This document shows, piece after piece, positions 8 to 16,364 of a stretch of 64,000 nt of DNA. The DNA lies in the IMG/VR virus record IMGVR_UViG_3300044557_000292, positions 96,001 to 160,000 of that record; one strand, 5' to 3'. The stretch is from a virus. Taxonomy: Duplodnaviria; Heunggongvirae; Uroviricota; Caudoviricetes. How positions within the stretch are numbered: the stretch's first letter is position 1; each line of letters starts with the position of its first letter. A program made the position numbers and the translations under genes. Below the pieces are notes generated by a model, which was not told the DNA's origin, searched no databases, and was given only the letters and a program-made list of their open reading frames with translations.

Positions 8-412
8 TCAAGATTCGAGCTCATAGTGATCTTGGCTGAATGACCCACCCTGCAGCTCGCGGACGCACTTGTTAAGCGCGTTAACGAGCGACTTACCGCC
101 GCGTGGGTTGAGCGAGATGCTGTGATTCCAACTGTTACCGCATTCGAGGGTGTAATGGAAGTACTCGGTAAGCTCCTGTACGGTGCCCGTTTGCTTTGAG
201 ACTCGACCGCGATGCGTCTTGATGATCGTGTATGTTCTCGCGCCCTTCTTCTTCAATGTCTTGCTGGGCGCGTCCGGCGCTGACGTAACCTCTACTGGTT
301 CGAGATGCTCACCGTTCGGCCCTCTCCAGTACCCGGAGACGTGGACGCCCGCGCGATCATAATCCTCGACCCAGGTAGCGCCCTGTACCGGTGGTTCACC
401 ATGATCACTCAT
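8..412 (-). CDS. Hypothetical protein with tag-1 N-terminus (DHGEPP..GATWVEDYxRAGVHVSGYWRG)
   Basis: ORF with GGAGG SD; N-terminal ~35 aa shared with four other ORFs in the window. Confidence 0.8.
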   Translation of the reverse strand: MSDHGEPPVQGATWVEDYDRAGVHVSGYWRGPNGEHLEPVEVTSAPDAPSKTLKKKGARTYTIIKTHRGRVSKQTGTVQELTEYFHYTLECGNSWNHSISLNPRGGKSLVNALNKCVRELQGGSFSQDHYELES

Positions 413-3825: not shown

Positions 3826-4392
3826 TTGGACATGAGTGTGAACGAAGCGGTAAGAGACGCAATATGGGTGAAGCCGTACGAACGAGCTGGAGTACATGTC
3901 CGCGGGTACTGGAAGAGTCCCAACGTGGGTAAGATTCATGACGAGTCTCCTAACGTAGATCAACGCGAGCAGATTCTTGGAAGGTCAACTGCAATTGATC
4001 ATTACGCCCGCCGTCCAATGATTCGAGACTACACGTTCGAGGGCGTGAAGTTCAGGGTTGATGGGGCCACGTCGTCCGGTAGAGCTATCATAGGGGCGTT
4101 CACATCAGTCGCAGAGCATCTTCACCATGTGGATGGGGTGTTCCCATGGATGAACGATGAGGAGCTTGATGAGAAGATCAGGAATGAGAACATCGCCCTC
4201 ACGAATCCGCATAACGATGCTGATTCCATTAGAAGGAAGATCGGCGCGCTTGAGGAGGAGTACTCTGATAGGACTCATGAGAAGGTTCGAGATCATATGG
4301 ATGAGGTCATTACCGAGCTGTCGCGCCATAAGGTGAAGTATCAATCCCTGCGGTCTGTTCTCAAGACCATGCTTGAATCATATAAACTGTAA
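3826..4392 (+). CDS. Hypothetical protein with tag-1 N-terminus (WVKPYERAGVHVRGYWKSP)
   Basis: ORF with GAGGAG SD (start 3826 or 3832); shortened tag-1 motif. Confidence 0.8.
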   Translation: MDMSVNEAVRDAIWVKPYERAGVHVRGYWKSPNVGKIHDESPNVDQREQILGRSTAIDHYARRPMIRDYTFEGVKFRVDGATSSGRAIIGAFTSVAEHLHHVDGVFPWMNDEELDEKIRNENIALTNPHNDADSIRRKIGALEEEYSDRTHEKVRDHMDEVITELSRHKVKYQSLRSVLKTMLESYKL

Positions 4393-4432
4393 CAGGGCCC
4401 CCGTCTCTTTAATAGTATAAGAGGCTCTGTTA
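4390..4432. terminator. Possible bidirectional terminator hairpin
   Basis: taacagggcc...ggctctgtta inverted repeat between convergent ORFs. Confidence 0.4.
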
Positions 4433-4452
4433 ACCGCGATCACGCTTAGCGT

Positions 4453-4767
4453 TTACGCCCAGGTACCGTTCCTCTTGGCCTCATCAAGGAGACGATCATG
4501 CTCTTCCTCAATCCTAGCATAATGTTCTATATCTTCATCATTGGCGTTCTTCCACTCAGCTATGGCAGCATCGTCAACAGCGCGATTCGCATTATGGACT
4601 ATTCTTGACAGGTATGACGCCCTTCTAGCAGGACCAAACTTGTATCCAGACGTTATAGTTCTCAGTCGACCGAATAGGTATGCTAGCGAAGCAACGCCTG
4701 ATATGATGGCCGCCAGCCCCGTTACTGCTAAGCCGCCCCTAATGATCTTTCCTATTGTCCTCATCAT
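4453..4767 (-). CDS. Small membrane protein
   Basis: N-terminal hydrophobic helix, GAGGGG SD, ATATCTT motif upstream (4829-4835). Confidence 0.65.
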   Translation of the reverse strand: MMRTIGKIIRGGLAVTGLAAIISGVASLAYLFGRLRTITSGYKFGPARRASYLSRIVHNANRAVDDAAIAEWKNANDEDIEHYARIEEEHDRLLDEAKRNGTWA

Positions 4768-4858
4768 AACCCCCTCGACTTTCGTTCAGAATGATAGTTA
4801 ACAGTTACACTGTTATTATAACGGTAATAAGATATGTGGAAAGAGTAAGCTATAGTAA

Positions 4859-5818
4859 TCATTCCGCCTTATTGATCTCATTGAGGGCGTTGCCCACAGA
4901 CGACCTCTTGAACTTGATGTTCTTACGCTCTGACTCTGGGGTGGACTCCCATATGCTCATGAGCTGATCTGTGGTCACGGTCAAAGGCTCATCATCCCCA
5001 CCACTGGGGTACACTGTCCACGAGTGCTGCGCACCACACGTGAAGTCCTCGGTGGAATCATCTGAATCCCTCTTCACCGTGACCCTATAAGCCTCACTCG
5101 TTAACGGCTCGTACTTCTCGATCACACGATGCCATTCCCCGTCATCACCGACCACATGATCGCCAACCTTAAGCTCACCTAGATTCCTCCTGCCCTCAAG
5201 ACTGGGGACGATCGTGGCGGCAGCAAGCGCCTTGGCGGGTGATGACGTGTCGAGCAGCTCGCCGGCCTCGTCGACCATGACCATGAGAGCGCTACCGGCG
5301 TTCTCCATGTCGAGGAAGTTGTTATGGCCGGCTGCCTCCATGTCCCCATACCTGTCCATCATGGTCTCCTGGGCGAAACGGAGAACCTCGATCGCGTCCT
5401 CCAGGGTCGTGGCCACACCGATGATCGCGTTCGTGTACGGCTTGTAGGCAGAGAGCTCCACACGCTTTAGATCAATGGCAAGCATCTTGATCTCTTTAGA
5501 ATGCGTGATGATATGATCAACGATGTTACGCTGGGCGACGCTCTTACCGCCTCCAGTGTTATGGGTTAGCAATACCGAATCTGACGATTTGTCACGGAGT
5601 TCATATGAATGTGTTTTGTGTTCTACTCGGATGCACCTGACCGGTTCTTGTGGAAGATCATCAACAGATTTGATTCTCATCCATCCATGGCTGATGGAAG
5701 ATGGAATCAGGTAACGATCATATCCATCTTCAACAAGCTTCTTCATGTCAATGACTCTGACGCGCTTAAGATTACGATCCCATACCGTCCAGAGGTGTTC
5801 CTCATCGCACTTAATCAT
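4859..5818 (-). CDS. FtsK/SpoIIIE(TcpA)-family ATPase core fragment flanked by split-intein halves: Int2C (5558-5818) - extein (5231-5557) - Int3N (4859-5230)
   Basis: ..HLW..VRCIRV..LLTHN|TGGGKS; FtsK motifs IDLKRVEL, MMDRY and Walker B MVMVDEAGEL; then K|ALAAATIVP..LGELKVGDHV..CGAQHSW and a stop without intein blocks F/G. Confidence 0.9.
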   Translation of the reverse strand: MIKCDEEHLWTVWDRNLKRVRVIDMKKLVEDGYDRYLIPSSISHGWMRIKSVDDLPQEPVRCIRVEHKTHSYELRDKSSDSVLLTHNTGGGKSVAQRNIVDHIITHSKEIKMLAIDLKRVELSAYKPYTNAIIGVATTLEDAIEVLRFAQETMMDRYGDMEAAGHNNFLDMENAGSALMVMVDEAGELLDTSSPAKALAAATIVPSLEGRRNLGELKVGDHVVGDDGEWHRVIEKYEPLTSEAYRVTVKRDSDDSTEDFTCGAQHSWTVYPSGGDDEPLTVTTDQLMSIWESTPESERKNIKFKRSSVGNALNEINKAE

Positions 5819-5824
5819 ATGTGC

Positions 5825-5831
5825 AAGATAT
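5825..5831 (-). promoter_or_regulatory. Class-B leaderless promoter -10 (ATATCTT-N6-ATG) of the ATPase core fragment
   Basis: Same motif and spacing at seven other starts in the window. Confidence 0.7.
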
Positions 5832-5938
5832 CATTGGGTGATATTCCCGTTAACGGTTGCAACGTCTGTCGCATAAACGTTTTATTTTTATGACGTAAGA
5901 TATTGTTTCATCTGTAATAGAATGGTATAATGTATTGT

Positions 5939-8779
5939 ATGTTGACTTTATTAGAATCTAAGCCCTTAGCATCTAAGTTATGGGATAAGACCAAGAATAG
6001 CACGCCATTGGAATCAATTGATTCCAACGATGATAAGGAATATTATTGGACATGCAAGAATCATGGTCATAGCTTCAAGATGTCCCCAAAGAATATTCCC
6101 AATGATTCCAGATTCTGTCCCTTTCATACGCTTTTGCTTATACCAGGTCTTAATGATCTACAAACGGTAGATCCTTCGATAGCCAGTTGGTTTGCTGAGG
6201 ATCTTAACGGCGTGCCAGCAAGCAGAATCAGGGCGAATTCAGGGAAAAGGTTCTGGTGGCGCGACCCCAGGCATCATGATCATGTTTGGCAGTCCTCTCT
6301 TTCCAATAGACGAGGGCAACGATCTGGTTGCCCAATATGTAGCGGTCATGTTCTTCTATCGGGAGTGAATGACATAGCCACAATGGATCCAGTTGAGTCA
6401 GAAATGCTGGATACGGAAAAGAATCACGGGTTGACTCCTGATAAGATTCGATATGGATCTAATGCGAAAATATGGTGGAAATGTTCTAGGGGCCACTCGT
6501 TCCTCAAATCGCCCTCATGGATGAGGAATAATGGTGGTAAGTGCGAGCAGTGTGAGATGGAAGACACTTTATCGATAGCGGCTATGTACCCGGATTTAAT
6601 TCCTTGGTTTGATGATGGTTGCAATAAAGATTCCGCCGATCATACCCCGGCAAAGACCATGATGAAAGTTCATTGGAGGTGTTTTAAGGGTCATGCGTTC
6701 ACCATGAGGCCGTATGATATAGAACATGCTTCTCATAAGTGCGTAAGATGTTATGGGAAGGTGAAGAAACGTGTTGTTGAGGGGATAAACGATCTTGCAT
6801 CTCAACGTCCTGACTTATTAAAGCGGTGGGCTTATGATCGTAATAAAGATGATCCCAAAACGGTCAGGATTACTTCTAATAAAGAGTACTGGTGGACGTG
6901 CAAAGAACATCCTGATCATTTGTTCAAGTGCTCTGTGAAGAGAATGAGCTCTCTCGCTAAGAATCAGTGCCCGTATTGCTCTGGAGAAGAGACTCTAGTT
7001 GGGTTCAATGACCTCTTCACCATGATTCCAGAGTTCAAAGGAATATGGGATTACGAGAACAATGCGATTGATCCATCAACAATCCGCGTACAAACTAGAG
7101 GTACTGGAGCTTGGTGCAATAATGATGATGTTCTTTCCTGGAGGTGTTCTAAGGGTCATCACTGGAAATGCAAGATTTCAGATCTTCGAAGAGGCAATCA
7201 CAAGCATTGTCCATACTGCTTGGGAAAGATTATGCTTCCTGATCATTCTAATAGCATTGCGTCAGATTATCCAATTGTTCTTAAGGAATGGTTTTCTGAT
7301 AAGAATGGCGACCCCAACAATATAACTACAGGATCTTCGATAAGAAGCAAGATCTATTGGAAATGCTCTAATTGCGGAGGAATATGGAAGACGCGACCGT
7401 TCTACTATATTAACAACGTATCTTTTAAGCATGACAATAACTGTCCTTATTGCCACGATCGGGAGTTACTGACCGGTCTCAACGATCTTGCCACCAGGCG
7501 GCCAGATCTGATTCCAATGTGGTCAGAGAAGAATGACAAGGGTCCAGGTGAGTACATCTTCAACAGTCATGAAGAGGTGATATGGAAGTGCCCGGCTGGT
7601 CATCATCGTGAATGGAGAGATTCCATTCGCAATGAGGTCAACGGAGGGTACACTGCTGGATGCTACGTCTGCAAGAATAAGGTCTATTCGCTTGGAGAGA
7701 ACGATCTTGCTACGCTGCGCCCAGATCTGGTAAAAGAATGGGCGTATGATCTCAATAAGACCAGACCAGAAGATCATATGATCAATGATAGAACGCCAAT
7801 TATGTGGAGGTGCAAGAATGGCCATGTATGGACTTGTTCTATTTCCGGAAGAGCATTTGATCATAATGGGTCTTGTTTCAGATGCGCATCTGGTCTTCAT
7901 ACGAGTGAACCAGAGAATGAGATTACCAGTTATCTAAGATCTATTCTTGGACATGATGAGATAATCGTTAATAACGATAGAAAGATTCTTGGAGGACCCG
8001 AGCTTGACATTTATCTTCCTAACCGTCATGTCGCTATTGAATATAATGGTCTCTATTGGCATTCGGTTCTAGTAGACAATCAATTCAATAAGACTCGTCA
8101 TTATGAGAAATACACGTCTTGCAAGCAATTGGGAATCCGCCTCATACAGATCTGGGAAGATCAGTGGCTCGATCACCCCGATATTGTTAAGGACTCATTG
8201 AGAGCAATACTGAAGCCTGAGACCATGATTAAGGAGAACGCTCGGTCACTTCATGTCGAAGAACCAGAGAGATCATATGCTCAGAAGTTTCTTGATGAGA
8301 ATCACATTCAAGGGCATGCGGGAGGATGCTCATACCTCGCTCTCGTCGATGATCATCATATGATTAAGGCCTGCATGGCTTACAGGGTGAATGATTCCGA
8401 GTTCAATCTTGTTCGATATGCGTCCGAGCTAGGTCATAACGTAAGAGGTGGATTGAGCAAGCTTTTAAAGCATTCGATAAGCATCGTGAATAAAGACGAT
8501 AAACGGGTAGATCATGTGGTGACATTCAGTGATAACACGATTAGCGAGGGTGCGTCATATGAGAAGATAGGATTCCACATTGATAAGGAAATTCCTCCAG
8601 ATTACTCTTACGTGAGTGGGAAGCATCGTTTCCACAAGTTCTTGTATCGTAAGAAGAGATTCCGTGATGATCCTGATCTTAAGTATGATCCAACTGCTCA
8701 TGAGTCAGAGCTTGCTGAGATGAATGGTCTTAATCGTATCTACGATGCGGGTAAGATCCGCTGGAGGATGAACGTCTAG
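5939..8779 (+). CDS. Free-standing putative homing endonuclease: ~9 Zn-ribbon repeats + Vsr/DUF559-like PD-(D/E)XK nuclease + Hef-like C-terminal domain
   Basis: Repeated GxNDL..P.L..W....N....WWxCxxGHxW..CPxC units; SEPE..ELDIY..AIEYNGLYWH..IQIWEDQW; C-terminal FLDENHIQG..RYAS..GGLSKL..IYDAGK; start from GGTATAAT-N7-ATG. Confidence 0.85.
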   Translation: MLTLLESKPLASKLWDKTKNSTPLESIDSNDDKEYYWTCKNHGHSFKMSPKNIPNDSRFCPFHTLLLIPGLNDLQTVDPSIASWFAEDLNGVPASRIRANSGKRFWWRDPRHHDHVWQSSLSNRRGQRSGCPICSGHVLLSGVNDIATMDPVESEMLDTEKNHGLTPDKIRYGSNAKIWWKCSRGHSFLKSPSWMRNNGGKCEQCEMEDTLSIAAMYPDLIPWFDDGCNKDSADHTPAKTMMKVHWRCFKGHAFTMRPYDIEHASHKCVRCYGKVKKRVVEGINDLASQRPDLLKRWAYDRNKDDPKTVRITSNKEYWWTCKEHPDHLFKCSVKRMSSLAKNQCPYCSGEETLVGFNDLFTMIPEFKGIWDYENNAIDPSTIRVQTRGTGAWCNNDDVLSWRCSKGHHWKCKISDLRRGNHKHCPYCLGKIMLPDHSNSIASDYPIVLKEWFSDKNGDPNNITTGSSIRSKIYWKCSNCGGIWKTRPFYYINNVSFKHDNNCPYCHDRELLTGLNDLATRRPDLIPMWSEKNDKGPGEYIFNSHEEVIWKCPAGHHREWRDSIRNEVNGGYTAGCYVCKNKVYSLGENDLATLRPDLVKEWAYDLNKTRPEDHMINDRTPIMWRCKNGHVWTCSISGRAFDHNGSCFRCASGLHTSEPENEITSYLRSILGHDEIIVNNDRKILGGPELDIYLPNRHVAIEYNGLYWHSVLVDNQFNKTRHYEKYTSCKQLGIRLIQIWEDQWLDHPDIVKDSLRAILKPETMIKENARSLHVEEPERSYAQKFLDENHIQGHAGGCSYLALVDDHHMIKACMAYRVNDSEFNLVRYASELGHNVRGGLSKLLKHSISIVNKDDKRVDHVVTFSDNTISEGASYEKIGFHIDKEIPPDYSYVSGKHRFHKFLYRKKRFRDDPDLKYDPTAHESELAEMNGLNRIYDAGKIRWRMNV

Positions 8780-9639
8780 TCCCTGGTAAGAGATTCCTCG
8801 TACTCATCCTCCGCATCTGCAAGTACGTCTGCCGTCCATTCCGGGACGTCGTCCCAGGGATAGGGTTCTAGGGTGAGGCCATACAGGCAGTCTGCCTGCA
8901 TGATTTGGCTCACACCGTCAACCCTGGTGGGCCCATCTGGTCCAATGACCATATCACCGATCTTAACCCCGCCCATCGTCGTCTCTGTTCCATCGGCCAG
9001 TGGGATGATCGTGTCGAGGGTGAGTGGTCCTCCGCAGTTATGGGTCGGCACGCCGCTCTTCATGACCTCATCGTACTCATCCTTGTCAACGCGATACTCG
9101 ACACCGTTGCTCGATGGGATCGTCTTCAAATCGGGCTGATCGGTATTCGACCAATTGCCCTTCTGATCAGTATGCTCGAGTAGGCTAGAGTCATTGCTAG
9201 ATGCGAGTAGGAATGTGTGCGTCGGTGAGTCAACCCTAAGGCACTGCACCTTGATCTTGTCAGCATCATTGTCATCAACGAGCAGGCAACTCTTCACCAT
9301 CCAATGCTTGACTGCACCATCCGGCGTCATGATCGGCGCGAGGATTGGGTGATGACCCCTGGTAGTCCACGTGGCGATGTCCCCCGTGCTCGCCTCAGTC
9401 TCCCCCCTGTATGCTAGGGGGACGTCTGACGATGATGGGTCAAGTGGCCATACGTGACCAGCGTCAGCATTGTATGAATCCACATGACCATACGTGTCAA
9501 CGAACGTGATCCTGTAAAGCTCGCTCGGAGTCTCAGCACTAGTCTTGGAGAGGACTATCGAGATTCTTCCATCGGCATCAATAGTCCTATCGCCAGTCTT
9601 CACGTCAGCAAGACGCTTCGGCATCATCATCCATCTCAT
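8776..9639 (-). CDS. Double split-intein splint protein: Int1C (9037-9639) - extein CGG (9028-9036) - Int2N (8776-9027)
   Basis: LADVKTGD..ADAGHVW..VQCLRVDSPTHTF..GVPTHN|CGG|PLTLDTIIP..GVKIGDMVIGPDG; start from ATATCTT-N6-ATG at 9646-9652. Confidence 0.88.
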   Translation of the reverse strand: MRWMMMPKRLADVKTGDRTIDADGRISIVLSKTSAETPSELYRITFVDTYGHVDSYNADAGHVWPLDPSSSDVPLAYRGETEASTGDIATWTTRGHHPILAPIMTPDGAVKHWMVKSCLLVDDNDADKIKVQCLRVDSPTHTFLLASSNDSSLLEHTDQKGNWSNTDQPDLKTIPSSNGVEYRVDKDEYDEVMKSGVPTHNCGGPLTLDTIIPLADGTETTMGGVKIGDMVIGPDGPTRVDGVSQIMQADCLYGLTLEPYPWDDVPEWTADVLADAEDEYEESLTRD

Positions 9640-9769
9640 GTCATGAAGATATGAGTCTTCAATCATTCTATGCATATGTGATCACGTGTGTCCATATTGA
9701 ATTCGATGATAGATTACATGTGTTATTAATGGTGTCTGATCTTGATTGATTATAATGATGGAGGATATG

Positions 9770-10558
9770 ATGGGTGATCATGGGGAGCCACCGGAGGAGG
9801 GCGCTACCTGGGTGGAGGACTACGAGCGCGCGGGCGTCCACGTCTCCGGGTACTGGCGTGGTAGGGATGGGCATAAGATCTATCAGGTGGAGGAGTCGGG
9901 GCCACGGTCCCTTGGAGGCGGCTTTGACCCTGGGGATTCTAACGTTCTTAGGAAGAAGAGACCTGGCGAGCGTGACTGGGATCGCGTGAACGTGAGGATC
10001 GAGAATCTTATCCATAAGGAAGGTCGTCTATCGAAGGGGGACGTTGAGGGTCTTAAGGACACGACCGTACAGCTCATCATGTCAAAGCGTAAGATTAACA
10101 GGGGTACCTATGATAACGCTCGCGTCGCATACGAGATAGATCCAGACTCTGCCAGCATGGATGAGTACGTTGCCCTCAGTCTTTACTCCCACATCACCGC
10201 CGTCAAACTAGCTGAGTCAAAGAAACTTGACAAGAACAAGGTTGGTCTCCTCATTCATAATGGTGGTGATCTAGCCATTGAAGCCCTGGCGTCTAATCCA
10301 GATCTCCCAGACGACTGCTGGGAGATGGTTGAGTCGCAGTGCAGCTGGAATGAGGGCGTGTGCGCAAGACTTGCCTGCAATCCGTCATGGCCTAACGCTA
10401 ATGCAGCCGGGAGGCTGTATGCGAGTGGACAATGGGGTGAGATACCGGCCATGGGCGTTACGTTATTAGAACGCGGTGATCTTGATGATGACGTGAAGCG
10501 GGGTATCTTGAAGATGAATGATCAGTGGAATAAGGATCGTCGCTGGTATAATGGTTAA
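9770..10558 (+). CDS. Tag-1 protein with LRV/HEAT-like repeat C-terminus
   Basis: GGAGG SD; tag-1 motif; ALASNPDLP and LACNPSWP repeats. Confidence 0.8.
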   Translation: MGDHGEPPEEGATWVEDYERAGVHVSGYWRGRDGHKIYQVEESGPRSLGGGFDPGDSNVLRKKRPGERDWDRVNVRIENLIHKEGRLSKGDVEGLKDTTVQLIMSKRKINRGTYDNARVAYEIDPDSASMDEYVALSLYSHITAVKLAESKKLDKNKVGLLIHNGGDLAIEALASNPDLPDDCWEMVESQCSWNEGVCARLACNPSWPNANAAGRLYASGQWGEIPAMGVTLLERGDLDDDVKRGILKMNDQWNKDRRWYNG

Positions 10559-10717
10559 TCCCGTAAGACGGGGCAATGATTCCTAATATGACTACTCAAC
10601 AGAATCATATCCTGATGGTCCAGATGGCTATCACTCTAACACTCTTTAATCGGCCAGCATGAGATAAGAGGATAGACGCGAGATTGCAAGAATGAAACAC
10701 TGGGTACCATACAATGC

Positions 10718-11119
10718 ATGAGGTTGATAAAGAGCGCGATGCAAGAACATGATCAAACGATAATCGGATGCAGCCTGCTCATCGAGTATGATGGTCTTGC
10801 TAGCGAGCAGAGGGTTATTATCGTCCCCATTGAGGGATGCAACTCCTACACGATTAGGAAGCTCAAGGAATGTCATTCACCTCTTCATGATCTTACCAGC
10901 GAGCCCAACGTATCATTACTGAGGCCAATGTTCCTTGGATCCATCCTCACTGGCAGTAATGCTATTCTTGATGAGGGTACGTTGCGCACACTATCTGTAA
11001 GAAAGATTATTAGGATGATGATCACCGGCACTATGCTTGATGGATCCGTGGTGAAGATCGACATTGATCCGAATGATTCCAATCTGCGTGATGATCTCAA
11101 CCAGGTGTTAGGATTGTAG
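10718..11119 (+). CDS. Hypothetical protein
   Basis: ORF with GGTACCAT-N7-ATG leaderless start. Confidence 0.7.
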   Translation: MRLIKSAMQEHDQTIIGCSLLIEYDGLASEQRVIIVPIEGCNSYTIRKLKECHSPLHDLTSEPNVSLLRPMFLGSILTGSNAILDEGTLRTLSVRKIIRMMITGTMLDGSVVKIDIDPNDSNLRDDLNQVLGL

Positions 11120-14589: not shown

Positions 14590-15219
14590 CTAATCTGGAA
14601 GGGCAGATCGTCCATCAGATGAATACACGCCATCTGGTTCATCGTTTACCTCGTCATCTTGATAATATTCAAGAAGTTTGTCTGATGTTTCCTTCTTCAT
14701 GGCTAAACGCAAGTTCGACTCGACCACATTACGATTCTTATCTCGATGCACCGTCTCATCGGCATAGACGTCTCCGTACTTCGTTGGTATAAGATACGTC
14801 TCGCGAGTATATGAGTCATTGGGATCATTGACTGCTGACGAGAAGTCATCGGGTTCTATAGGAGTAATTCGGAGTAATTCTGGCTTACCTATTGGATACT
14901 TGGCCGGCGCGCCGTTGATCAGCACGTCGTTCATGTTACTGAGAACAGTGCCATCCTCCATATCCTCACCGAAACCAGAGTATGTCGCATAATCCCCCTT
15001 GGGAAGAATGGGCTGGCCATTCCTGTCGATTTTTGGACTAGTTTTAACTAGATTCTCCTTCTTGAGCACTGGACTAGCAAACGTTGTACTAGTTGATTCC
15101 AGTGATTGAAGTCTCTTCCCGTTCGGCCCCCTCCAGTACCCGGTGACGTGGACGCCCGCGCGCTCGTAGTCCTCGACCCAGGTAGCGCCCTGTACTGGTG
15201 GCTCACCATGATCACTCAT
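14590..15219 (-). CDS. Tag-1 hypothetical protein
   Basis: AAGGAGG SD; tag-1 motif; unrelated C-terminus. Confidence 0.8.
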   Translation of the reverse strand: MSDHGEPPVQGATWVEDYERAGVHVTGYWRGPNGKRLQSLESTSTTFASPVLKKENLVKTSPKIDRNGQPILPKGDYATYSGFGEDMEDGTVLSNMNDVLINGAPAKYPIGKPELLRITPIEPDDFSSAVNDPNDSYTRETYLIPTKYGDVYADETVHRDKNRNVVESNLRLAMKKETSDKLLEYYQDDEVNDEPDGVYSSDGRSALPD

Positions 15220-15258: not shown

Positions 15259-16275
15259 CTACCTGTTCATATATTCTGGGAGTACGTCCCTAATCATGTC
15301 CGCGGCCTCATGGAAGCTGGCTGCCGCCCATTGGTCGCCGTCATATTCAGCATCGTCTCCCGCATCGTCATACTGATCAACTTTGTCCAGGAGTTCGTGG
15401 GCAGCTATTGACGCCGATGTGGAATCAATGAATGAGTTGTGTTTAACGATGCCATCAATATCGCTCGCAACCGACCCATAAACAATCTTTGAGTGGTCAT
15501 CAGTAACGTCTCTCCTAGACCTCATGTAGGAATCTTTGAGCTTGGACACCCTGTCCTTGAATTCTAATCCAATTGGGCTGGTATCACTAACGGGTATCTT
15601 CCAAGCGTCATTCTTATCTACGCCCTCGTACACGTCTGAGGTCAATTCCCCATCACTGCTCATGTGGAGGATCACAGCGTCATCATTGCCCGTCTTGTCA
15701 TTGTACACGTATCCTCTGTAATCACCTGGTAACAAGCGATTGGAAAGAACAGCACCGTAAGCCTCATCTACGTCTCCATCCTGGTCTCCTATAACGCTGA
15801 GGTAGAGGTTCCTGGTTGACCCAGAATCTAGCCTTAGAGTCGGAGCGTAATTGCTCTCATCAACGGAGCTAACGGAAGGATCGATGATTAGTGATGCCTC
15901 TTCAACGTGAGCGCCATTAAGATCTGCTTCCATTGCCTTCGTAATCTCGGTTTGAGACCTTACCCGGCCTCCATTCCCTAGATCGTTCATGATGCGTCTA
16001 ATATTACCCGGATTGCCATTATGGTCAGCCTTGCTCGCAGCGGTCTGAAGGGCTGTCCATTGAGCTTTGGCTTCCTTGCTGGCAAAATTGGAGTGGCCAG
16101 CCTTCTTCTTACTCAAGACGTTTACAGGAGTGCTTGGCCTGCCACCATTAGATTCTCCGATGATGATCTTATGGCCATCTTTACCCCTCCAGTAGCCTGA
16201 CACGTGAGAGCCGGCTCTCTCGTACCCCTCAACCCACGTAGCACCCTGTTCTGGTGGTTCCACATGATCTTCCAT
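15259..16275 (-). CDS. Tag-1 hypothetical protein
   Basis: GGAGG SD before MEDHVEPP; tag-1 motif; unrelated C-terminus. Confidence 0.8.
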   Translation of the reverse strand: MEDHVEPPEQGATWVEGYERAGSHVSGYWRGKDGHKIIIGESNGGRPSTPVNVLSKKKAGHSNFASKEAKAQWTALQTAASKADHNGNPGNIRRIMNDLGNGGRVRSQTEITKAMEADLNGAHVEEASLIIDPSVSSVDESNYAPTLRLDSGSTRNLYLSVIGDQDGDVDEAYGAVLSNRLLPGDYRGYVYNDKTGNDDAVILHMSSDGELTSDVYEGVDKNDAWKIPVSDTSPIGLEFKDRVSKLKDSYMRSRRDVTDDHSKIVYGSVASDIDGIVKHNSFIDSTSASIAAHELLDKVDQYDDAGDDAEYDGDQWAAASFHEAADMIRDVLPEYMNR

Positions 16276-16364
16276 TCTATCCTCCATTCGTATGCCTTTG
16301 TAAAAATCTAACGAAGGATTAATCAATGGAATTCGCTCAAGAAGGTCTAGTTAGGGTAACCGTC

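Follow-up and report, generated by a model that had tools for sequence, protein, structure and literature searches.

We analysed a window of 64,000 nucleotides, which is part of a closed 419,707-bp IMG/VR record (G000) with terminal repeats and a CheckV completeness of 100%. Two genes on the minus strand of the window, X and Y, encode pieces of an ATPase bordered by intein halves, and a predicted nuclease gene runs antisense between them, Table 1. Gene X is nearly all intein, and its extein is only three residues long, CGG. Gene Y matches the Pfam family FtsK_SpoIIIE (PF01580) at 1.6e-9.

Two further pieces, W and Z, are found in the same record. W contains two hydrophobic stretches, an N-terminal domain and the strand before Walker A; its extein ends PMSLI and is followed by a 45-aa tail, Int1N, which starts PLDVDT (block A). 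Z starts with a 46-aa Int3C head (blocks F and G, ending THN), followed by a 304-aa C-terminal extein that begins with SDDAK, carries RLGR and TQRP motifs and ends in an acidic low-complexity tail. A scan of the replicon for intein C-terminal motifs gave six matches, of which three are X, Y and Z. Direct tblastn and motif scans using X, Y and Z missed gene W, which was located via intact relatives. Upstream of W are a gene for a TcpF-like N-half and one for a signal peptidase.

Table 1. Location of the ATPase pieces, their intein halves and associated features. Plain numbers are window positions; C1 refers to G000 unless another record is named.
Feature	Location	Strand	Description
Gene X	9639-8776	minus	287 aa: Int1C to THN, CGG, Int2N
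Int1C	9037..9639	minus	first part of gene X; all but block A, ends THN
X extein	9028..9036	minus	Cys-Gly-Gly, 3 residues; first half of the Walker A loop
Int2N	8776..9027	minus	last part of X; Pro start at 9027, block A, strands before block B, acidic tail, stop
Gene Y	5818-4859	minus	319 aa: Int2C to THN, extein, Int3N
Int2C	5558..5818	minus	first part of Y; block B start to THN
Y extein	5231..5557	minus	109 aa; starts TGGGKS (second half of Walker A), ends shortly after Walker B VDEAGELL
Int3N	4859..5230	minus	last part of Y; Ala start at 5230, blocks A and B, stop
Predicted nuclease gene	5930..8779	plus	949 aa with zinc-ribbon repeats; antisense, fills the intein 2 break; stop overlaps the X stop
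Gene Z	G000:C1:92668-91616	minus	outside the window, 8.2 kb downstream of Y; Int3C to THN, then extein
Two nuclease-like ORFs	C1:92863-94087	antisense to Z	directly upstream of Z; DUF7487 1.6e-7, weak PHROG HNH match 1.7e-5
Gene W	G000:C1:208552-209979	plus	outside the window, 103 kb from X; N-terminal extein, then Int1N
TcpF-like VirB4, one half	G000:C1:206357-207811	plus	
TcpF-like VirB4, other half	G000:C1:223038-224264	minus	15 kb from the first
tRNA array	G000:C1:306,000-320,000		50 genes, with a GIY-YIG nuclease gene inside
Site-4 intein, sister record G001	G001:C1 (L071:6421-7854, L071:15762-16397, L028)		
Site-4 intein, sister record G002	L070, L029		
Site-4 intein, sister record G004	L072, L044		
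Site-4 intein, further records	G005, G007		

The layout is reproduced in independent assemblies. A single 7,036-bp contig from one of these (run X5) covers window positions 4027-11061, i.e. X, the nuclease gene and Y, and X is free of indels in all three runs that cover it, out of four examined. An assembly artefact as the source of the split between X and Y is thereby ruled out. At least 83% of the sampled words are present in nine further runs, all of them from bioreactor sludge of 2021 and possibly from one campaign; this reading of the habitat sets aside runs with a small share (dust, wastewater). At least eleven otherwise unlike ORFs have a common N-terminal motif of about 30 residues (window 8-412, 9746-10558, 14590-15219, 15259-16326 and seven more loci in G000), which could be either a mobile targeting module or a repeat for recombination that aids gene shuffling. 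One contig of run X11 joins window position 5546 to 9921, with Y and the repeated-motif gene on opposite strands; this single record is probably a chimera.

All three inteins start with a residue that is not a nucleophile (Pro in inteins 1 and 2, Ala in intein 3), and all have the WCT triad (Trp in block B, Cys in block F, Thr in block G) and a terminal His-Asn. The +1 residues of inteins 1 to 3 are Cys, Thr and Ser, respectively. A non-nucleophilic start together with the W/C/T triad is the definition of class 3 as worded in the text of PMC7891396 available to us. The three inteins differ in where they are cut: the break follows block A in intein 1, directly precedes block B in intein 2, and is at the usual late site, before block F, in intein 3.

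The best match of each of the six halves is the contiguous intein of its own site in a relative, at complementary ends. For intein 2, Int2N matches the N-terminal 76 residues and Int2C residues 174-254 of the contiguous intein in P0010, and P0094 does not have the intein and reads CGG-T contiguously. In P0001-P0006 a contiguous intein 3 links Y and Z in one protein, and P0192 and P0194 have intein 1 in one piece. The match of Int1N to a contiguous relative extends over only 9 residues (E 0.009), so that the pairing of W with X rests mainly on these two proteins. An identical block A ends 17 out of 17 W-type matches (self included). As each intein is contiguous or absent in some relatives, the pairing of all six halves is fixed.

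Due to the staggered cut points, pairings that skip a piece (W-Y, W-Z, X-Z) would lack part of the intein fold. Backward pairings (X-X, Y-X, Y-Y) are conceivable and would have duplicate strands. The net charge of the halves ranges from 0 to -16; all are neutral to acidic, and whole fragments thus do not show the charge complementarity seen in typical split inteins. The AF2 model of X has a pLDDT of 79, and its top seven PDB matches are class-3 DnaB inteins. The model of Y alone is poor (pLDDT 47.5), and the ESM Atlas contains no usable match for W. A complex prediction of X, Y(1-125) and the W tail, run without controls, scored 0.27 against a mark of 0.32 and is used neither for nor against the pairing. 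Two other explanations were considered and rejected: a cyclic-peptide (SICLOPPS-like) role for X, because its two halves belong to different inteins, and joining of the pieces by a known intron, as there is no Rfam match in the 103 kb around the pieces.

When the four exteins are joined, they give about 846 residues, which match a profile of 17 intein-free relatives as one domain with 430 bits (E 7e-132), and both junction regions are free of gaps in W, X, Y and Z. Therefore, the register of the exteins is not due to chance. Omitting X from the set costs 16 bits, and omitting Y breaks the domain in two. The P-loop residues are identical in the intein-free P0040. The Walker A, Walker B, arginine-finger and QRP sensor motifs of the RecA-type domain of an FtsK/SpoIIIE/TcpA ATPase are all present across the four pieces, in register with the 17 relatives. 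The best solved relatives of the family profile are PDB entries 6O1W-6O1Z, named "DNA translocase coupling protein" (1.4e-36), which we take to be TcpA of pCW3, and FtsK (1.5e-30). Every break is inside an intein and none inside an extein, the four reading frames stay open throughout, and no motif is damaged. The family profile matches only W, Y and Z in the genome, and hence there is no intact paralog.

The original prediction was made from the window alone, and its core is borne out by these sequences. It had read X as Int1C-THN, CGG, P-Int2N and Y as Int2C-THN, TGGGKS...VDEAGELL, A-Int3N, and had proposed that their exteins complete a Walker A motif, which they do in register with the intein-free relatives. 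The ATPase was thought to come from at least four genes by three split class-3 inteins, and the triads and the six matched halves agree with this. Neither partner gene was seen in the window, and both were predicted to exist elsewhere; W and Z are these genes. The splicing in silico that had been proposed as a check is the single-domain alignment given above.

To place the system among its relatives, 191 proteins among the matches listed were classed by motif; cluster members and the 56 weakest matches were left out. Among them are 17 W-type, 24 X-type (self included) and four stand-alone Y-type proteins. The stand-alone Y-type is seen in P0174-P0177 and L056. Contiguous forms were found for intein 1 in two proteins, for intein 2 in eleven (X and Y fused), and for intein 3 in six Y+Z fusions and others. 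Walker A and C-terminal motifs without any intein motif occur in 45 out of 191, some of which are fragments or more distant FtsK-like proteins. The family has two further intein sites. Thus, the ATPase exists in relatives as an intein-free protein, with contiguous inteins, or in two to four pieces. Seven contigs of 0.48-0.54 Mb common to a W cluster and a Y+Z cluster, as judged from equal lengths, suggest three-gene versions. In a quick tree (98 columns, 72 rows, 6 rows dropped without a core match), which is weak and cannot order events, the intein states are intermixed within one clade. No close relatives were found in GTDB genomes, named plasmids or phages, nor in IMG/VR with the W or X profiles, a search that may leave out records very near the window's own.

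The fused X+Y forms (P0007-P0017, L057:8636-10978) appear by eye to have an X-like acidic C-terminal tail followed by a long low-complexity spacer, and they may be re-fusions rather than ancestral contiguous inteins. Degenerate short paralogs of the ATPase core are located beside the C-terminal or middle gene in some relatives (L030, L031, L036, L056:3059-3919). Further contiguous class-3-like inteins are present in relatives, in a nuclease-like protein and a pilus-type ATPase (L032/L033/L037:11375-13383; L079, L080; hosts named by eye), which makes this element family an intein hotspot.

Stand-alone X-type genes fall into 24 clusters with identities as low as 36%, and the catalytic residues do not vary among them. 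THN-CGG-P is present in 24 out of 24 X-type proteins, where the splicing residues, including the +1 nucleophile, are invariant, and the same stand-alone layout is seen in 24 out of 25 X homologs of near length (self included). L056 has separate X and Y genes in reversed order, with Y upstream of X, which excludes read-through. An intact functional paralog, with these genes left to drift neutrally, had been named as one finding that would speak against the system. Instead no such paralog is present, and the dN/dS against L056 comes to about 0.10 in the Y extein and 0.34 in X, rough values as dS is near saturation. The Y extein is still 81% identical to that of L056 while the synonymous sites approach saturation, and 4 out of 4 Y variants are synonymous among the variants listed. 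Population variants in X affect 11 codons synonymously and 12 non-synonymously, none of them catalytic, and show only a modest constraint on X.

Two of the three breaks have a free-standing nuclease gene. At intein 2 it is clear: the 949-aa ORF contains nine copies of Pfam DUF4379, matches PHROG homing/HNH endonuclease families at 7e-80 and 1e-87, and is a predicted nuclease. At intein 3 there is a weak relic, the two ORFs beside Z, which look split. No nuclease gene is located at the intein 1 break in G000.

A Pfam scan of 236 ORFs of the element found conjugation-type, Tad, replication and CRISPR-Cas genes. Capsid, terminase and portal genes are absent from these 236 ORFs (Pfam) and from 30 ORFs compared with PHROGs; both scans omit six ORFs across locus borders and nearly all ORFs below 200 aa. 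The PHROG comparison gave ParA- and ParB-like matches, and tape-measure families were matched only through lysozyme domains. Given also its tRNA array, we read the element as a giant and plasmid-like one rather than a proven phage. Matches to CrgA and NucS hint at a host in Actinomycetota, if their distribution is as we assume. The terminal repeat of C1 sits in a CRISPR-like array, with a type I-E-like cas operon about 170 kb away (244,884-253,541). A type IA topoisomerase is encoded by two adjacent genes without an intein motif (G000:C1:343248-345776).

What the motor does is less certain. A coupling protein of TcpC-type conjugation had been proposed, which is uncertain. In its favour, the best solved relative is TcpA, and the element encodes a TcpF-like VirB4. 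The VirB4 is itself in two genes, both with matches below the curated cut-off and neither with intein motifs, and its C-half is a separate frame of about 400 aa in five out of five relatives. What does not fit is that G000, like five out of five relatives, encodes a VirD4/TraD-like ATPase, and that no relaxase of the MOB_T type was found (no match to PF02486, PF08751 or PF00589 in G000). According to the text seen of PMC3548315, VirD4 is absent from 47 out of 47 TcpA regions, and these go with MOB_T relaxases. The VirD4-like ATPase makes the label of coupling protein uncertain, and with no relaxase match we therefore call the ATPase a TcpA-like translocase and not a member of TcpA. Like TcpA and FtsK/SpoIIIE it has an N-terminal membrane anchor. 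It differs from TcpA in its surroundings, with a VirD4-like gene and no Rep_trans match, and from chromosomal FtsK in that the tail of Z is acidic and of low complexity and no gamma (KOPS-reading) domain was detected, with no Pfam family at all matching Z at E <= 1e-5. Most likely the motor moves the DNA of the element in conjugation, a reading that we hold only a little above an even chance, or else in segregation. The transfer would possibly be of double-stranded DNA, which has been discussed for relaxase-free plasmids in the part of PMC13492992 at hand.

Sister lineages (G001, G002 and G004 in IMG/VR) have another intein in the same ATPase, at a site one residue before the end of Walker A (the K|S site, site 4); no intein is present at this site in G000. 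In all three records the N-terminal gene ends 14-20 residues past the P-loop lysine, and the C-terminal gene, which has only blocks F and G, is 90-118 kb away. Close to the N-terminal gene, another ORF aligns with positions 12-204 of a profile made from 14 contiguous inteins of the site (E 2e-14 to 4e-24). The short tails of 14-20 aa score nothing on this profile; they are placed by their position alone. The middle ORF has homologs in five out of five further records, three of these homologs being weak and without the block B Trp. From these matches, the site-4 intein appears to be split over three genes in the sister lineages.

We consider it likely that three split class-3 inteins ligate the W, X, Y and Z precursors in trans into the predicted membrane-anchored FtsK/TcpA-like ATPase of about 846 residues. 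Each pair of halves would fold, the internal Cys would attack, the chain would be transferred to the +1 Cys, Thr or Ser, and cyclisation of Asn would follow. This is the class-3 route, with a Cys-branched intermediate, that we predict for all three inteins. X would work as an adaptor with two ends and contribute Cys-Gly-Gly to the P-loop. As for the origin, selfish inteins would have invaded conserved motifs of the ATPase, free-standing nuclease genes would then have broken the inteins, and rearrangement would have scattered the pieces; selection on the ATPase would now keep all halves. Two junctions are inside the P-loop and there is no intact copy, and therefore all three splicing reactions would be required. 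By construction this makes a logical AND, and nothing shows selection for it.

The original prediction had gone further and seen a possible post-translational AND gate on transfer. In a fuller form of such a gate, the four-gene layout would have been domesticated for regulation, so that active motor arises only with all four loci on and X is the limiting transfer switch. All four products are logically needed, W has conjugation-type genes as neighbours at a distance of 103 kb from X, Y and Z, and the split between W and X is widespread and old, all of which would suit such a gate. As an adaptation it has not fared well, since relatives range from intein-free to four pieces and show every mix of absent, contiguous and split inteins, intermixed in one clade of the quick tree, the gene order varies between elements, and the nuclease genes at two of the three breaks fit selfish fracturing, so that no benefit is needed to account for the splits. 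Around X and Y, promoter-like sites are about as frequent as expected by chance (13 against 10.4 +/- 3.0), and we find the gate improbable. It is unlikely, too, that the three inteins were domesticated into an ordered assembly line, in which the staggered cuts were selected against skipping and X would license the motor when the four dispersed loci are expressed. The sister elements would then reach a similar end through the free-standing middle fragment of their three-piece intein.

A working P-loop needs its peptide bonds, as established from its structure. With two junctions three residues apart within this loop, and with the splicing residues invariant in all X-type proteins down to the +1 nucleophile, it is very unlikely that the motor assembles without full ligation, as a non-covalent complex whose intein halves dock or self-cleave, even if there are phage precedents in NrdA of Aeh1 (PMC2677866, as far as its text was available) and in gp43A of Aes123, which has no intein in its GenBank record. 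Finally, mobile elements could have destroyed the ATPase and left these genes as decaying remnants. In favour of this, the nuclease-like ORFs next to Z do look split, and the second coupling-type ATPase could substitute for a lost one. Set against this are the four open frames, the intact motifs, the location of all breaks within inteins, the identity of the Y extein to that of L056 near synonymous saturation and the synonymous Y variants. These conservation data appear to refute the decay largely, and we regard it as highly improbable. Ligation in trans remains our preferred reading.

In the literature available to us, described split-intein hosts consist of two trans-spliced pieces, and one naturally split class-3 intein has been described. 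If assembled as proposed, the ATPase would depend on four precursors being joined by three trans-splicing reactions within a single cell. We found no natural host trans-spliced from more than two pieces in the main texts of the open literature; the related literature covered here also includes PMC10189870, PMC3322345, PMC3653736 and PMC11923092, each in part. Inteins in more than two fragments are stated as not shown in nature in the accessible text of bioRxiv 2023.01.30.526203, and a survey of actinobacteriophage inteins (bioRxiv 2025.01.02.630785) has no mention of FtsK in its accessible text. The three inteins would be a natural set of class-3 split inteins that are probably orthogonal and have an early, a middle and a late cut, one with a very short N-piece; such a set would be useful for ligation of multi-segment proteins. 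The ATPase family keeps the whole series of intein-free, contiguous, split and dispersed forms, which lets a neutral ratchet be tested against regulation in intein splitting, by comparison and by gene replacement.

Laboratory constructs for tandem trans-splicing (PMC12707363, in the part available) likewise use middle pieces of the form IntC-segment-IntN with orthogonal inteins, and the engineered three-piece inteins of bioRxiv 2023.01.30.526203, also made in the laboratory, resemble those of the sister lineages in their N, M and C fragments. Among natural systems, the AceL NrdHF intein (PMC7891396, Hoffmann et al. 2020) is also a naturally split class-3 intein and has been shown to trans-splice efficiently; the present host has three such inteins, each with the standard WCT triad and a cut site of its own. 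The PolB of Aes123 (GenBank JN377899; PMC11923092), as far as the sources seen describe it, is a single enzyme spread over three genes, two of which are separated by a nuclease gene and share a split intein. Unlike the present case, it has one intein-annotated junction, adjacent genes and a cysteine-less intein that is not class 3. Closest are the fractured genes of PMC2677866 (Dassa et al. 2009), in which, according to the part seen, a free-standing nuclease gene is located at an intein break, and for which the model given there predicts that the parts are later dispersed; the origin proposed above follows steps II-IV of that model. As in those loci, an enzyme gene is broken within an intein, with a nuclease gene at the break, and one of the inteins described there is cut after N1, as is intein 1. 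However, the loci described there are in two parts, with three ORFs on one strand in one locus; one DnaE locus with part of an additional intein is also mentioned there. The system described here has four pieces, three split inteins, antisense nucleases, one piece 103 kb away and an extein of three residues. Judged from its sequences, the four-gene ATPase is a real, conserved and complete system, and it would be an extreme variant of the fractured genes.
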